A DNA stretch of 39,628 bases, taken from IMG/VR virus record IMGVR_UViG_2565956762_000004; one strand, given 5' to 3'. Below the pieces are notes generated by a model. It was not told the origin of the DNA and searched no databases. It saw nothing but the letters and a program-made list of their open reading frames with translations. The stretch is from a virus. Its lineage: Duplodnaviria > Heunggongvirae > Uroviricota > Caudoviricetes. This document shows, piece by piece, positions 1,505-27,242 of this stretch; positions within the stretch are counted from its first letter, which is position 1, and each line of letters begins with the position of its first letter. Both the position numbers and the translations under genes were made by a program.

Positions 1505-1530
1505 ACAATATTTAACACATGTAGTAATTA

Positions 1531-1695
1531 CATGTTCTTGATGATCGCATCACCAAACTCGCTGCATTTCAGCAGTTTAGCACCTTCCATCAGACGTTCG
1601 AAATCATAGGTTACGGTCTTCGCATTGATTGCGCCTTCCATACCTTTAACAATCAAGTCTGCGGCTTCAGTCCAGCCCATATGGCGTAACATTAG
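1531..1695 (-). pseudogene. icd: displaced 3'-terminal fragment of isocitrate dehydrogenase gene (about 54 codons, no 5' part)
   Basis: Minus-strand translation [54 protein letters not shown] matches the Icd C-terminus. Upper boundary is approximate. Confidence 0.75.
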
Positions 1696-2502
1696 ATTTA
1701 GAAAATTATTATATCCAATTGAATTAAAACAATTTTATGCTTAACGAACATCTAAACTTGTTTTTTTACCTTCACCATAACTCGCTGATTTTGTATAGTT
1801 TACGTAGCGTTTTGATAACCACTTTATGGCCAAATGGAGGTTCGCTTGAAAACTTCTGTTCTTATCCAGAAATTAATGGAAATTGACAAAACTGTACTAT
1901 TCGATGCGGACGTAGTGACCGGTGAGGAATGGTGGCCAACCCCGATTTCTCGTGTTTATCACAATCCGCCACATACTTATGTAGAATTTTAAATAGGTGA
2001 ACAATCTCAAAATGAATCTGACGAGCTAAGTGTTTATAGCGAATTATAAATTTGTGCACATCGAATGATGCAAATTAGAGATTTTGTGCAATCTAACGAG
2101 GGACTGAAACCTGAAAAAATTGTTTCGGAAATAAACATTCAAATTGAACGTATTAAAAAGTGATGGCTGAAGCAATTCTGAAACACTAATTCATATTCTA
2201 TGTTATTCATACCAATGTGGATTTAACTCCCACCAACCCACCAACCATGATTGGGCGGCGCAATAAACTAATATCAATAAAAACAGCAAGTTATCATTCT
2301 AAACAGAACACCAACGGGATGGAGGAGAGACAAAAAATATCCAATGAAACCGTAGCGCGTCAGCATTCAAAAGCGGGGTTTCTTATTTTTACTTCACCAG
2401 TAACAAATACACTGTATCATAACTACATAAAAATGATTGTTCTGACTCAGATGAATTTCTTACTCTTGTGGAATGTCACTTAATGTTATTTATAGGTAAA
2501 CA

Positions 2503-4392
2503 ATGAAATCCGAAACGCTAACCATCCAGCAAATTTTCCAAAATCAACGACAATATCGTGTTCCATTCTATCAACGTGCCTACGTATGGACGCAACGAAA
2601 CCAATGGTCAGCTTTGCTGGAGGATATCTTCGAAAAAGCACAGAGCCGACTTTCGGGAACAAAACCAACCCCTCATTTCCTCGGCGCGGTGGTGCTGGAA
2701 CCTCAACTCAAAAACAGCTTGTTAGGTGTAGATACCATACATATTATTGACGGCCAGCAACGTTTAACCACTCTTCAATATATTCTGGCATCCATTCGAT
2801 TATCATTGCGTGCTACAGGCCTTTCTGAACTGGAAGGGTTAGTATTGACTTGCTTGAAAAATACAAACGAAGCAACGATGAGAAATAAAAAGGTAGAATG
2901 CTTCAAACTGTGGCCAACTTTTCGAGATCAAACTCATTTTATTCAAAGTCTTAATGTTGATAATATTGACGATCTCCGTAATGTATTTTCTGATAGCTTC
3001 ACGCAACATGGTACGTTACGTAAACATTTCAACCACCCGCCGTCACTAGAGGCATTATGGTTTTTTACTGAAGCCTTTATAAAATGGATTAAAATAGAAA
3101 ACCACTCACCACAAGAAAATGCTGTAGCACTAATTGAGGCTGTCTTGACGGATCTGAAACTGGTAAGCATATTTCTCGAAGCTGAAGATGATGCCCAAAT
3201 AATTTTTGAAACATTAAATGGGCGAGGAGCGGAACTTCATGCAACGGATCTTATTCGCAACTATATCTTTATGTGCGCTGAGCATGAAAATATTAATGCT
3301 ATTGAATTATATGAAAATGAGTGGAAGATCTTTGAAGATAAATACTGGTCGGAAAAGCAACGCCGTGGACGTATTAATAAACCACGCATGGAGTGGCTTG
3401 TACATGCGACATTGCAATCAGAAAGGCAGCGTGAAATTGATCTGTCTCGCCTTTACAATGAGTATCGTGATTATGTAAGTAAGGACTTGCCTTCACAACG
3501 AGCAGATCTGCAAGTAAAGCGCCTCAAACAATATGCATCACAATATAAAGAATTGGTTGGTGGTTTTGGCACAACCCCCATCTCACACTTTGGACATCGC
3601 ATCGCAGCCTATGATGTGACGACACTCTATCCGCTTGCTTTGTTCATTTCGATAGCTAACATCGCCGATGATGAGAAAGCAGCCATGTATAATGATCTTG
3701 TCTCCTACGTAGTACGAAGATCCGTATGTGGCCTGACGCCAAAGAATTACAACAATGTATTTATGAATGTATTGCGACACTTGTCTAAAACGGAAATTTC
3801 CAGTGTTGAGTTACGTAATATCCTCAATAGCTTAAATGGCGAAGCCTCACGTTGGCCTGGGGACTCAGAATTTCTCAACGCTTGCATCAATGCTCCACTT
3901 TATCCTGGCAGGCTCGACGCACCGAAAATGCGCTCAATGTTAACGGAACTTGAAAGAGAACTTTGTCGCCAAGTGAAGACAGAAAAGCCTGATGTTCCAA
4001 ATCTTTCTAATCTCGATATCGATCATCTTATGCCTCAAAGTTGGTATTCCTGTTGGCCTCTCGAAAATGGTCATATGGTGACAAATTCAGATGCTACGGT
4101 AATGAACCAAATTGTTCTGTCTGGAACCGATCTTACCCCTGAACAGCTACTGGTAAGGAAACGGCAACAAGCGATAGCTACGTTGGGAAATCTAACTTTG
4201 CTTAACCTTAGCGTAAACCGTTCCGTTCAGAATGCTGTATTTCTGAAAAAACGTGATGCTCTCATCGTCCACACCAATCTACGACTGAACATACCACTTA
4301 TACTTAAGGATAAATGGGATGAGAGTGAAATACTGGAGCGAGGTAAAAAGTTGGGGGAAATTGCATTGAAAGTATGGCCAAAATACGATTAA
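2503..4392 (+). CDS. DUF262/DUF1524 (GmrSD-family) putative type IV modification-dependent restriction endonuclease, 629 aa
   Basis: N-terminal DGQQR motif (IIDGQQRLTTL) typical of DUF262; C-terminal DIDHLMP His-Me finger motif typical of DUF1524. GC below phage average. Confidence 0.7.
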   Translation: MKSETLTIQQIFQNQRQYRVPFYQRAYVWTQRNQWSALLEDIFEKAQSRLSGTKPTPHFLGAVVLEPQLKNSLLGVDTIHIIDGQQRLTTLQYILASIRLSLRATGLSELEGLVLTCLKNTNEATMRNKKVECFKLWPTFRDQTHFIQSLNVDNIDDLRNVFSDSFTQHGTLRKHFNHPPSLEALWFFTEAFIKWIKIENHSPQENAVALIEAVLTDLKLVSIFLEAEDDAQIIFETLNGRGAELHATDLIRNYIFMCAEHENINAIELYENEWKIFEDKYWSEKQRRGRINKPRMEWLVHATLQSERQREIDLSRLYNEYRDYVSKDLPSQRADLQVKRLKQYASQYKELVGGFGTTPISHFGHRIAAYDVTTLYPLALFISIANIADDEKAAMYNDLVSYVVRRSVCGLTPKNYNNVFMNVLRHLSKTEISSVELRNILNSLNGEASRWPGDSEFLNACINAPLYPGRLDAPKMRSMLTELERELCRQVKTEKPDVPNLSNLDIDHLMPQSWYSCWPLENGHMVTNSDATVMNQIVLSGTDLTPEQLLVRKRQQAIATLGNLTLLNLSVNRSVQNAVFLKKRDALIVHTNLRLNIPLILKDKWDESEILERGKKLGEIALKVWPKYD

Positions 4393-4414
4393 TGCAATTA
4401 ATAAAATGATTATA

Positions 4415-4438
4415 GCGGCCTTACATTAGTAAGGCCGC
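4415..4438 (+). terminator. perfect 10-bp hairpin GCGGCCTTAC-ATTA-GTAAGGCCGC, 23 bp after the restriction gene stop
   Basis: Perfect inverted repeat seen in sequence; no clean T-run, so termination role is uncertain. Confidence 0.4.
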
Positions 4439-4617
4439 AACTCACTATTAAATCCTTTAATTTGCATCAAGAACAGCACTGTCAGCCCTAGGCTCTCGGA
4501 CTTTGTACCGCTTATCTTGTCTTCAAAAATCAGCTCGCATCCTGCACAGTTCAACGCATTACGTTGTAGATCTGTGTTCTGGTCATTTATTGATACGCGT
4601 ACATAGCTAATAAGCAT
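4426..4617 (-). pseudogene. pin: truncated Pin/Gin/Hin-family serine DNA invertase (first ~40 codons only)
   Basis: MLISYVRVSINDQNTDLQRNALNCAGCELIFEDKISG matches the invertase N-terminus with the catalytic Ser; similarity is lost after ~40 residues and the ORF stops at 63 codons. Confidence 0.7.
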
Positions 4618-4672
4618 GTTAAATCCCCCCAAGTAAAAGCAGGAATGATGCCATTTGCTCGTTATTTCTGCA

Positions 4673-4698
4673 TTTTCATAAACGTTGGTTTGGGAGAA
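4673..4698. repeat. invertase crossover site, left (TTTTCATAAACGTTGGTTTGGGAGAA)
   Basis: Reverse complement TTCTCCCAAACCAACGTTTATGAAAA nearly equals the site at 6518-6543; palindromic AAACC/GGTTT centre as in gix/cix-type sites. Confidence 0.65.
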
Positions 4699-5145
4699 GG
4701 TTCTGCATTACCTGTTGGGGTGCCTGTTCCGTGGCCTTCAGCCACTCCGCCAACAGGCTGGCTGAAATGCAACGGTGCGCCTTTTTCTGCCGAAGAGTAT
4801 CCGGAACTGGCAAAAGTTTACCTGACAAATAAATTGCCTGATTTACGCGGTGAGTTTATTCGTGGCTGGGATGACAGAAGAGGAATAGATACTAGCCGTA
4901 GCTTGCTTTCATCACAGGGCGATGCCATTCGAAATATAATTGGTGCATTAGTGGATGTCAGGTTCAATACCTATCCTTCTGATTCTGGCGTTTTTACAAC
5001 CAGCGTCATCGGAGATGCTTCATCGGATTCAATTAAAGGTGGTTATGCAAAGCGAGTAACATTCGATGCTTCCAGAGTTGTTCCAACTGCAAACGAAAAC
5101 CGACCTCGTAACATTGCCTTTAATTATATCGTGAGGGCTGCCTGA
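4699..5145 (+). other. silent alternative tail-fibre C-terminal cassette inside the invertible segment
   Basis: Encodes GLGEGS at the crossover site, the same peptide the fibre gene encodes at 6518-6543 on the other strand; no plausible own start. Confidence 0.6.
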
Positions 5146-5753
5146 TGAATAAAGTTGTCTTAAATAACGAACTCATTGCCATAAAAGCTGGAGACATAAC
5201 CGTTTATAATTATAATGGTGAAACGCGGGAATATATTTCCACATCAACAGAATATCTTGCCATTGGTGTAGGCATTCCGGCATGTTCCTGTTTAGATGCT
5301 CCAGACTCATACAAAACTGGTTATGCAATTTGCCGTTCTGAAGATTTTAACTCATGGGTATATGTGCCAGACCATCGTGGTGAAATTGTCTATAGCACTG
5401 AAACAGGAGAATCAAAAGAAATCACAGCTCCGGGTGATTACCCTGATAATACAACCACTATCGCCCCGTTAACGCCATACGATAAATGGGATGGTGAGAA
5501 ATGGGTGACGGATACCGTGGCACAGCATAGCGCCGCAGTAGATGCAGCAGAAGCACAGCGCCAGTCGCTGATTGATACTGCAATGGCCTCCATCAGTCTG
5601 ATTCAACTGAAATTACAGGCCGGACGTAATCTGACGCAGTCAGAAACCAGCCGACTTAACACGGTGCTGGATTACATTGACGCGGTAACGGCAACAGATA
5701 CCAGCACCGCGCCGGATGTCATCTGGCCTGAACTGCCGGAGACTGCGCAATAA
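5145..5753 (+). CDS. tfa: tail fibre assembly protein (alternative-orientation set)
   Basis: 202 aa ending [13 protein letters not shown], the conserved Tfa C-terminal motif; start overlaps the upstream cassette stop (ATGA). Confidence 0.65.
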   Translation: MNKVVLNNELIAIKAGDITVYNYNGETREYISTSTEYLAIGVGIPACSCLDAPDSYKTGYAICRSEDFNSWVYVPDHRGEIVYSTETGESKEITAPGDYPDNTTTIAPLTPYDKWDGEKWVTDTVAQHSAAVDAAEAQRQSLIDTAMASISLIQLKLQAGRNLTQSETSRLNTVLDYIDAVTATDTSTAPDVIWPELPETAQ

Positions 5754-5922
5754 ACTCACCATCAATATATAAATCCCCCTGCTGTGTGTCAGCAGGGCAT
5801 TCTTTCCATATTAATGATGGATGGAATCTTCCTTCAGGATTAATTTCCGTTATCTCTTCTACTTTATTTTCTTCAATTCTTGCCCACATATGAACCTCAC
5901 CAGTAAATATAAACTGCGCCAT
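5719..5922 (-). CDS. short tail fibre assembly-like protein (currently expressed set)
   Basis: Start chosen at MAQFIF (ATG 5922-5920); converges on and overlaps the 3' end of the plus-strand tfa by 35 bp. Confidence 0.35.
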
Positions 5923-6820
5923 CTGCTCCGGCACCCGACTGACCCGTTGATGAATTAGGACATAATCCAGCACCGCCACCTCCAGGCCCAACTGCTGATA
6001 CCGCTTTTCCGTTAGCTGTATCTCTGAATGAACCTGCTCCTCCGGGGCCACCACCAGAACCACCATTACCAGCTCCCGATGCGGCAGACGCAATGGAACC
6101 TGGAGAACCTGGCCCAAGCGATGTATTAATTGTTCCCCCAACACCAACTGCGCCTAACCCTCCGGAAGGCTGGCCTCCGCTATAGCCTCCGGAAGCTGAC
6201 ATGTAAGTCCCGAAACTGCTCGAGCCACCATTTTTACCGTTTACAGAAATACCAGACACAGGCGCACCACCGGCACCAACCGTAATCGAAACACTGTTAA
6301 TACCAGTTAAATCTACCAGTCCCTCAGCAACTCCGCCCCCACCACCTCCTCCGCCACATGTAACGGCTGAAGCGGTTATTGAACCTATCCCTCCTGACGC
6401 ACCGCCACCAATAACTTTGACGTAACATTTTCTTCCTTTGCGCAACTCTTCAGGAACAGTCCAGCTTGTTACTCCAGCCGTTGTGAAGGCAACTAGATTT
6501 CTGAACCCAAATGAGCCTTCTCCCAAACCAAGGTTTTCGAGAGCCGTTTTCACCGTGCCATCCGATTTGATATCGCCAAACGGATTCTTGCGGCTTAACA
6601 GCAGCGCACGAAGCGCGGTAAGCAACTGGTCGTGCCGCCCCTTCTCCAGGCTGGCACCGGATGCCTCCACCACGCTGCAAAGCTCCTCCTGCAACATGTC
6701 AAAGTAGTCATCATCCAGATCGGTGGCAGGTGTGCCGGTCTGGGGGTTACCACGGGTAAAACCGTTCTTACCCGCGCCGAACTTATCCTTCTGCGCGGTT
6801 TTCGTGTCTATACGATGCAT
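5897..6820 (-). CDS. tail fibre protein (constant N-terminus fused to the currently selected variable C-terminus)
   Basis: 307 aa, glycine-rich repeats; N-terminus [46 protein letters not shown] typical of side tail fibres; crossover site inside the gene. Confidence 0.75.
6518..6543. repeat. invertase crossover site, right (TTCTCCCAAACCAAGGTTTTCGAGAG)
   Basis: Inverted copy of the 4673-4698 site; conserved half TTCTCCCAAACC identical. Confidence 0.65.
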
Positions 6821-18779: not shown

Positions 18780-19985
18780 TTACGCCACTGCAATCTTCAG
18801 CAGTTTGATGGCCTGCGAATCGACCAGCATGCCGCCGGTGCGTTTGGTGGTATAAAAACCGACAAACGGTTTATTGGTGTACGGGTCACGCAGAATGCGG
18901 GTGCCGATACGGTCAACGATGGTGTAACCCCGTTTGAAGTTACCAAATGCAATGGCTTTCGCATCAGCGGCGATATCCGGCATCTGTTCGTTTTCAGCGA
19001 TACCGTAACCCGCCAGAGAGGACGGCTGCCCCAGCTCCAGCCCCGGACGCCACAGATAGTTACCCTCGCTGTCTTTCAGCAGACGGATGGCAAACAGGCT
19101 GTTGTTGTTCATCATGAACTTCGCACCGGTGCGGTGTGCCTTACGCAGTGTGTAAATAAGTTTGATAATGGCGTCTGCGGTCACCGCAGTCGCTTCGCCG
19201 GATACAATATGCTGAAGTTTGCCGAACGCCCGGACCTTATCGGTTTCATCAGTGGATTCATACGCCAGGAACCCTTTCGGCTTCTTGGTGCCATCGCCTG
19301 AGGTAAAGGCAATTTCTTCCTGTTCGGCAAATTCGGTTGCCAGCTCGCTGTTGATCCAGGCCTCCACGTTGAAGAAGGCATCGTCCAGCATTTTCTGGGT
19401 GGCCTGCGGGTTGCCGTAGATTTCCCCCATGAGAGGTTCAATCAGCTCCAGTTTGGAGGTGGCAGTCTGGGATCGCGTATCCGTTTCCCCCACCCATCCG
19501 GAAGCCGTGCCGCCCAGATTCACCAGTTTTTTGTAGTCGGAACCGCCAACGGTGATCACCGTGGCTTCCTAGCGCATCACCACTTCATCTTTCAGCAGGG
19601 TGAGAATGTTGCGATCCAGCGCTTCCGGCACGGCATAGCCACCGTCTTCATCGGTGCCCACCTGCAATGCCTTACGCTCCAGATCGCGCAGACCATCTTC
19701 ACGGCCTTTACGCAGGAAGCCCACAAACGCTTCTTTATGCTCGGTGGCCAGTTTATTTTGCGCACCACCTGCCGGACGTTTCAGCTCAAGCAGCTCTTTT
19801 TCAAGATCGCTTTTGAGGTTTTCCAGCTCGCTGAGTTTCCCGTTCAGGGTTTCCACCTGCCCGGCAAGTTTGCCTTTTTCCTGCTCAATCGCATCCACGC
19901 GCTTGTCGTTCTTTGCTTTGAAGTCGTCAAACTTCTGCTGCAGCTCCTGCGCGACCTGTTCGACATCTTTAATATCTACCGCCAT
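18780..19985 (-). pseudogene. HK97-family major capsid protein gene interrupted by an in-frame TAG (19569-19571)
   Basis: Upstream ORF (coiled-coil delta domain) and downstream ORF (capsid body) share one frame; read-through gives ...DEVVMR*EATVITVGG... Confidence 0.7.
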
Positions 19986-26426: not shown

Positions 26427-27242
26427 ATGAAAGTGTTCATAAGTTGGTCTGGGCAAAGAAGTCAAGCTGTTGCAGAACTTATTAGCGACTGGCTGAAGTG
26501 TGTTATCCAAGCTTCGCAGCCATGGATTTCAACCAGAGATATTGATCGTGGCGCTATATGGTTCTCTGAAATTAATGATAAATTAAAAGATGTATCTGTC
26601 GGCATTGTATGTTTGACACAAGAAAATAAAAATAAACCATGGATTTTGTTTGAAACAGGAGCACTAGCAAAAGGACTTTCAACAAATAAAGTTTGTACAT
26701 TCTTGATTGACTTAAAACCAGAAGATTTAAAAGATCCACTTGCTCAATTCAATCACACAACGCCAAATAAAGAGAGTGTTTGGGAATTAGTAAGGACAAT
26801 AAACAATTGTCTTGTCGATAAATCTTTAGATGACCGTATTCTAAAGCAAGTTTTTAATACATACTGGGAGCAATTTGAAAACAATTTTAAACGAGCTTTA
26901 GATCAATACCCTCCAACTGAAGAAGTAAAACCACGTACTGAACAAGATCTTTTATCTGAAATATTACAAAACACTCGTTCATTAAATCAAAGGATTAGAG
27001 TTCTTGAACGTGATGCTACTATCAACTCCATAAATAGCCATATGAATTTAACTCCTGTAGAACAGAAGGATGTTTGGTATCTACAAAAACAGATAGATGA
27101 AATTATAAAGAATGGATTGCTTGACGAGGATGAAATAATATCATTCTTAGACAAATATGACATTCCTGAAAAAATGATTAGGAACCAAATAAAATACACA
27201 TTAAACCAACGATTATCTGAAAGTAATAAAAAAAAGAAATAA
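26427..27242 (+). CDS. TIR-like domain protein with helical C-terminal extension (start chosen at MKVFISWSG)
   Basis: KVFISWSG...W.S...I..G..W......L......GIVCLT.EN...PWILFETGA fits the bacterial TIR pattern; GGAG 6 nt before the ATG; low GC; opposite strand to neighbours. Confidence 0.6.
   Translation: MKVFISWSGQRSQAVAELISDWLKCVIQASQPWISTRDIDRGAIWFSEINDKLKDVSVGIVCLTQENKNKPWILFETGALAKGLSTNKVCTFLIDLKPEDLKDPLAQFNHTTPNKESVWELVRTINNCLVDKSLDDRILKQVFNTYWEQFENNFKRALDQYPPTEEVKPRTEQDLLSEILQNTRSLNQRIRVLERDATINSINSHMNLTPVEQKDVWYLQKQIDEIIKNGLLDEDEIISFLDKYDIPEKMIRNQIKYTLNQRLSESNKKKK

Follow-up and report, generated by a model that had tools for sequence, protein, structure and literature searches.

In an e14-family prophage that has integrated at icd, the locus analysed here is the invertible P segment, and we consider it likely to be an orphan switch, one whose resident invertase is dead, whose cis elements are intact and which is still flipped by invertases encoded elsewhere in the genome. 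The stretch of DNA under study (39,628 nucleotides, referred to as the window) makes up one end of an e14-family prophage that is nearly full length. According to our annotation source, a RefSeq record identical to the window but for 3 positions, the prophage is ~36 kb long and has a myovirus-type tail, with the icd' fragment at one end and intE/xisE at the other. The crossover sites and the neighbouring genes are homologous to those of K-12 e14, and the gene order is that of K-12 e14 (ymfQ, stfP, tfaP, tfaE, stfE', pinE, mcrA, icdC). DNA identity to K-12 e14 is 93.7-98% over ymfQ, the stfP N-terminus and the pin 5' end, and 94.7% between the flank and the K-12 sequence that adjoins e14. Table 1 lists the features of the locus.

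Table 1. Positions of the features of the inversion locus and its surroundings in the window.
Feature	Position	Strand	Basis or remark
ycgX, iraM	before the icd' fragment in window order		RefSeq annotation
icd 3' fragment (duplicated, prophage end)	1528-1695		RefSeq annotation
GmrSD-type (DUF262) gene	2503..4392	+	Pfam GmrSD_N and GmrSD_C
pin invertase remnant, ~45 native codons	4482..4617	-	alignment to K-12 pinE ends at 4482
Homologue of the Fis-dependent recombinational enhancer, invertase nt 19-90	4528..4599	-	homology to P1 cin
pin-proximal 26-bp crossover site (pix-type)	4673..4698	.	central TT at 4685-4686
Variable cassette B: Collar-domain C-terminus, now unfused	4687..5145	+	Pfam Collar, phrog_523
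Tail fibre assembly protein (TfaE-type) of cassette B	5145..5753	+	Pfam Caudo_TAP, E = 2.7e-32; phrog_105
67-aa ORF downstream of cassette A, doubtful gene	5719..5922	-	RefSeq: hypothetical
Bidirectional terminator-like hairpin between the convergent cassettes	5777..5797	.	8-bp stem, 6 G-C pairs, both strands
Variable cassette A: glycine-rich C-terminal domain, now fused to the constant part	5897..6529	-	Pfam Gly_rich_2
Fibre-proximal 26-bp crossover site	6518..6543	.	central AA at 6530-6531
Constant tail-fibre N-terminal part (StfP-type, codons 1-96), outside the invertible segment	6532..6820	-	ORF 5897-6820
ymfQ, then baseplate, tail, head, lysis and regulatory genes, xisE, with intE last	after the stfP fragment		RefSeq annotation

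Crossover sites and fibre cassettes

The segment is bounded by two imperfectly palindromic 26-bp sites, placed in inverted orientation and with an identical central TT. Written as outer half, centre and inner half, the pin-proximal site is TTTTCATAAACG-TT-GGTTTGGGAGAA and the reverse complement of the fibre-proximal site is CTCTCGAAAACC-TT-GGTTTGGGAGAA. Both are base-identical to the two P-segment sites of K-12 e14, which are the repeats that flank its 1797-bp P segment (Kirigo et al. 2025, PMC12529663), and both align in register with the annotated cixL and cixR of P1, where the record annotates the crossover between the two central T. The 26-bp limits given in the earlier note are thus exactly canonical. 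A repeat search returned the inverted arms at 4680-4703 and 6513-6536 (24 nt, 92% complementary). The 19-nt core AAACSTTGGTTTRRGAGAA is present in exactly 2 copies in the 39.6-kb window, one on each strand, where 0.10 would be expected, and 2 copies were reached in 1 of 100 shuffles. A third crossover site, which would permit multi-state inversion, was not found in the window. The same note had raised the possibility of mismatched crossover dinucleotides; those of the two sites, TT and AA, match and are compatible. About 1845 bp separate the central dinucleotides, and, the invertase aside, the locus is the Gin/Pin-type tail-fibre inversion switch, complete in cis, that had been proposed for it.

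In the orientation of the window the constant fibre part, which is 98% identical to K-12 stfP/ymfQ DNA and has PHROG tail-fibre N-terminal matches, is joined to cassette A. The resulting fibre gene (6820-5897) is intact and encodes 307 aa, made up of a StfP-type N-terminus and a complete Gly_rich_2 domain; the Pfam match covers fibre residues 113-307 and profile positions 1-225 of 226, and phrog_863 spans residues 1-307. PGAP splits or under-annotates this gene, and RefSeq carries an stfP fragment at 6512-6820. Cassette B is preceded by a short stfE-type leader ORF starting at 4645, and a RefSeq "phage tail protein" is annotated at 4648-5145 in the record that differs at 3 positions. The Tfa gene of this cassette has 88% DNA identity to K-12 tfaE.

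We considered the 67-aa ORF downstream of cassette A as a second Tfa and rejected it: it has no Pfam or PHROG match, its relatives form only six clusters, all near-identical and from E. coli, and the terminator-like hairpin falls inside it. The locus thus has two in-frame fibre C-termini, a Caudo_TAP Tfa with cassette B and the doubtful 67-aa ORF alone with cassette A. An earlier description of two convergent fibre/tfa sets stands for both C-termini and for the Tfa of cassette B, but not for cassette A, which lacks a recognisable Tfa.

Across the crossover site both ORFs encode the peptide GLGEGS, and in each frame the central TT takes up codon positions 2-3, which keeps the exchange in frame. 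This bears out the suggestion that inversion would swap the fibre C-terminus through GLGEGS, and the fused product, of 249 aa, is annotated in strain 1190.

The invertase remnant and the retained enhancer homologue

Homology to pinE spans the leader to position 4482, about codon 45, with the changes G4S, T10I, R42S and P43L. Beyond this point the sequence is unrelated, and the pin frame stays open until a stop at 4426-4428. The Pfam Resolvase match covers profile positions 2-54 of 145, the first third, with no helix-turn-helix, and PGAP calls a recombinase pseudogene (4474-4617) with its C-terminus missing. These three lines of evidence agree with the earlier estimate of ~40 native codons (we obtain ~40-45), and from what is left of its sequence the resident invertase is certainly non-functional. 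An adjacent complete serine invertase, with catalytic domain and C-terminal helix-turn-helix, is absent, and the RefSeq annotation of the record differing at 3 positions lists no second invertase in the window.

By blastn, homology to K-12 e14 is absent between window positions 1703 and 4495. This block, which runs from the attachment site to pin codon 41-45, is an exchanged one, in which mcrA and the 3' part of pinE have given way to the GmrSD-type gene. The replacement is what truncated pin.

The part of pin that remains includes a stretch of particular relevance to inversion. In the P1 record the Cin enhancer is annotated at nt 19-90 of cin, a gene whose 5' end aligns gap-free with those of pin', pinE and gin. 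The corresponding stretch is 70/72 identical to K-12 pinE and is wholly kept in the stub, 46 bp from the breakpoint and 86-158 bp from the centre of the nearest crossover site. This distance agrees with the described placement of the Hin enhancer, which is 65 bp long and lies ~100 bp from hixL (McLean 2013, PMC3798978). A cis enhancer in the 5' end of the invertase gene is therefore present by homology, and the same homology suggests that Fis may bind the stub. Since all the cis elements survive, the switch would still work as a substrate.

Orientation of the segment among E. coli genomes

We find the truncated DUF262-pin' junction in 288 of 5426 complete E. coli genomes. Within a close group of 23 carriers, defined by at least 99% identity, the segment has the orientation of the window in 18 and is flipped in five (1190, AST240, GPEC874, MS1679 and JNE120442). 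In the flipped strains the glycine-rich cassette adjoins pin' and cassette B is fused to the constant part, giving the annotated 249-aa protein. The flipped junctions of 1190 and AST240 are exact reciprocal products, each consisting of the outer half of one site and the inner half of the other. Between genomes the segment thus occurs in both orientations, joined precisely at the crossover sites.

Two pairs of genomes are especially informative. AST20 and AST240 have a common IS1414 insertion in tfa, inside the segment; their 3170-bp segments are 100% identical and lie in opposite orientations, with 1 mismatch in ~5.8 kb of flanks. IHE3034 and APEC O18 belong to a second lineage, in which the truncated junction is identical; their 1929-bp segments are 100% identical and inverted relative to each other, with 0 differences in 4.5 kb of flanks. 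Opposite orientations in pairs with practically no divergence imply that the inversions are recent and later than the truncation, and the IS1414 copy shared by AST20 and AST240 places that flip after the truncation and after the IS insertion as well. Counting from the IS1414 marker and the identical pairs, as the 23 elements have almost no SNPs, at least two flips would be needed in the 23-genome group and one in the IHE3034 lineage. Going by these genome comparisons, the switch is an ordinary one, still flipping and not frozen. The earlier note had it as probably locked in its current orientation, a view that is not supported, the identical truncated junction being found with both orientations, also in two pairs of near-zero divergence.

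It might still be argued that the locus is a relic, frozen after the loss of its invertase, and that the two orientations are either a polymorphism older than the truncation or the outcome of homologous recombination that moved the junction. The non-functional resident enzyme fits such a view, as does the one orientation common to 18 of the 23 near-identical elements, and K-12 pinE mutants are reported to be locked (PMC12529663). However, a single truncation junction is associated with both orientations, and in the AST20/AST240 and IHE3034/APEC O18 pairs the segments are identical and the flanks virtually so, with IS1414 shared in the former. Transfer of the junction would need a crossover within the ~190 bp between breakpoint and site, in two lineages, leaving no trace. 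We regard a frozen relic as unlikely.

The inversions may also be real but rare, produced where the short inverted repeats recombined by a RecA-dependent or an illegitimate route. The crossover can be mapped only to a 17-bp shared interval, and because this interval contains the central dinucleotide, homologous exchange would give identical products. Efficient RecA-dependent exchange usually needs roughly 20-30 bp, however, and the longest perfect inverted match here is only 16 bp, making a RecA-mediated event improbable. Against any route that dispenses with an invertase, the flips recur in zero-divergence clones of two lineages, the sites are canonical invertase sites, the enhancer homologue has been kept and inversion of the e14 segment in trans is documented. 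We hold such an origin to be very unlikely. That the orientation differences are assembly artefacts is barely credible: mixed orientations can confuse long-read assemblies (Forde et al., PMC4134206), but a 16-24-bp repeat misleads an assembler only if reads of both orientations exist, and hence flipping, and at least six complete assemblies, each independent of the others, show the flipped form with reciprocal junctions that are precise.

Invertases acting in trans and relation to known systems

We therefore return to a switch that lacks a working invertase of its own and is flipped from elsewhere in the genome. In this switch the constant fibre N-terminus (6820-6532) is joined at the 26-bp site to one of two C-terminal cassettes, carried on the ~1845-bp segment that the inverted pair of pix sites encloses. 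A Gin/Pin-family serine invertase would cut both sites at the central dinucleotide and exchange the halves, with an in-frame swap of the C-terminus as the result. Replacement of the cargo at the prophage end (mcrA by the GmrSD-type gene) deleted pin past about codon 45, and the cis elements that survive are both sites, with their matching central dinucleotides, and the enhancer-homologous stretch in the 5' stub. The inverting enzyme would then be supplied from elsewhere in the genome, either by Gin-family invertases of other prophages or by enzymes of the PinQ/PinR type.

Candidate sources are common in the close group. Using chimeric queries (junction plus pinE 3' part plus pinQ; full pinE plus the DUF262 part), which put the 23 carriers first, we counted additional places of similarity in each chromosome. 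At least one further pinE-3'- or pinQ-like place was found in 22 of the 23, including all five flipped strains, a count that may include fragments. For JNE120442 and MS1679 extra places appeared only with pinQ in the query, and the chromosome of JNEC-KY177, which is unflipped, has 0 extra pinE/pinQ-like places.

Action in trans has been described for related systems. The e14 P segment is inverted by PinQ, PinR and PinE alike (PMC12529663), the Hin segment is acted on by Fin, and in EC958 the invertase of Phi4 is severely truncated, yet inversion was seen in PacBio reads and was attributed by the authors to an enzyme acting in trans (PMC4134206). Given the locked K-12 pinE mutants, chromosomal PinQ/PinR may be insufficient at native levels; we suspect that the K-12 pinE deletion also takes out the enhancer. 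We infer that inversion in the truncated backgrounds is brought about by a trans-acting invertase together with Fis. The evidence thus favours what had been entered earlier as a caveat, that a homologue might act in trans.

A truncated invertase beside an invertible segment is therefore not the same as a frozen switch, which calls for caution in annotation and in reading prophages as decaying. With 288 carriers among 5426 genomes, a sizeable set of strains would rely on the invertases of other prophages for tail-fibre phase variation. This reliance agrees with the reported inversion of e14 by PinQ/PinR, which in recent work yields anti-phage proteins. We also considered whether the invertase-less switch is kept by selection, as a phase-variable module of the host under the control of other prophages' invertases, and is not a decaying leftover. 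We find this rather doubtful. If it were true, selection would explain why ~5% of E. coli genomes still have both sites and the pin stub with its enhancer, a possible use being StfE2-like leader-plus-C-terminus proteins that block the adsorption of other phages. The surface or defence output of one prophage would then be set by the recombinase of another.

The e14 invertible P segment and PinE were reportedly described by Plasterk and van de Putte in 1985, and it is to this e14 P-segment/Pin system, of the same kind as Mu G/Gin and P1 C/Cin, that the locus belongs; its defining cis features are present and the intact adjacent invertase is absent. K-12 e14 shares with it both 26-bp sites, which are identical, and the order of ymfQ, stfP N-terminus, invertible segment, pin, cargo gene and icd'. 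It also shares the cassette of Collar C-terminus and TfaE (88-94% DNA identity) and the stfE-type leader ORF beside pin. The two differ in that pin here ends at about codon 45 and a GmrSD-type gene stands in place of mcrA, and in that a glycine-rich domain without Tfa is found here whereas K-12 has the StfP C-terminus with TfaP. The segment is ~1845 bp compared to 1797 bp, and the prophage is a nearly full-length one of ~36 kb compared to the 15-kb remnant of K-12. The e14-like phage vB_EcoM-689R6 (ON470584.1) has an equal order of baseplate and fibre genes and a Pin 96% identical to PinE, but there, as in K-12, an intact invertase gene precedes mcrA.

Mu and P1 have in common with this locus the constant fibre N-terminus, the two convergent cassettes, the 26-bp sites with a central dinucleotide and the enhancer within the 5' end of the invertase gene. 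Unlike it, both phages encode an invertase that is intact and two fibre sets that are each complete with a chaperone, and in P1 cin points towards cixL, with the enhancer ~500 bp from the site. As with Salmonella Hin/Fin, and with PinQ/PinR acting on e14, a prophage invertase would invert a segment elsewhere in the genome; there, however, the target keeps a working invertase of its own, whereas here action in trans would be the sole route.

A close precedent for this arrangement is Phi4 of EC958 (Forde et al. 2014, PMC4134206), in which an invertible tail-fibre segment with 26-bp sites likewise adjoins a severely truncated invertase. Phi4 is a different prophage, with sites of the TTATCGAATACCTC-GGTTTACAGGAA type, and its inversion was read directly from one culture, whereas ours is deduced from the comparison of genomes. 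A dead invertase beside a switch that still flips thus has a published precedent, and the locus described here involves no new mechanism.

Major capsid gene and accessory genes

The 36-kb prophage looks complete apart from its major capsid gene, in which the window sequence carries an in-frame TAG (context …VVMR*EATV…). RefSeq lists the same gene as a pseudogene in the carrier strain SW4848, whose record matches the window at all but 3 positions. Because of this internal stop and the pseudogene annotation, the prophage is probably unable to make heads.

The cargo adjoining the attachment site has been exchanged relative to K-12 e14, the reference prophage. There the slot holds McrA, a type IV restriction enzyme, whereas in the window a GmrSD_N/GmrSD_C (DUF262) protein, likewise of a type IV restriction family, takes its place. 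In IHE3034 and APEC O18, the second lineage with the truncated junction between DUF262 and pin' (the stub of the resident invertase gene), the same DUF262-pin' module has a different setting, with a GIY-YIG gene resembling LEM-3 and a pseudogene resembling DinI next to it, and therefore seems to be mobile between contexts.

A TIR-domain protein gene annotated by RefSeq sits on the opposite strand and separates the lysis genes from the Q antiterminator gene. It resembles a moron and may be a defence gene.

Positions of the features discussed, in window coordinates unless locus L003 or L004 is named
Feature	Position	Strand	Remark
Cargo slot	1703-4495		adjoins attachment site
Leader of pin'-adjoining cassette	4645-4686	+	own ATG, 14 codons, MMPFARYFCIFINV
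IS1414 insertion in tfa	L003 3852-5060; L004 3972-5180		window equivalent inside tfa 5145-5753
Fibre gene	5897-6820	-	307 aa
Major capsid gene	18780-19985		
In-frame TAG	19569-19571		inside major capsid gene
TIR-domain protein gene	26427-27242	+	RefSeq annotation

Fibre annotation and the IS1414 insertion

In the window's orientation the 307-aa fibre gene is intact. RefSeq breaks it into a 'stfP pseudogene, missing C-terminus', to which some genomes add a 'glycine-rich domain-containing protein'; this split is an annotation artefact of a chimeric gene.

Some Japanese human isolates, forming a small group (JNE070796, JNE21-003 and the opposite-orientation pair AST20 and AST240), carry IS1414 within the invertible segment, where it disrupts tfa, the chaperone gene of the Collar cassette. 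The insertion is a clonal marker and dates one flip.

Enhancer homologue and cassette leader

Two differences separate pin' from K-12 pinE across the enhancer-homologous stretch, at window 4589 and 4554 (alignment columns 29 and 64). The column 29 difference falls in the putative proximal Fis core, as judged by analogy with the hin enhancer; this putative core reads GTATCAATAAATGAC in the window against GTATCAACAAATGAC in K-12 pinE.

The 14-codon leader is of the same type as that of K-12 stfE, and inversion would join it to the glycine-rich domain, giving a predicted chimera. In K-12, the StfE2 chimera has been reported to block T2 adsorption (PMC12529663), and by analogy the leader-glycine-rich fusion predicted here may be its counterpart.
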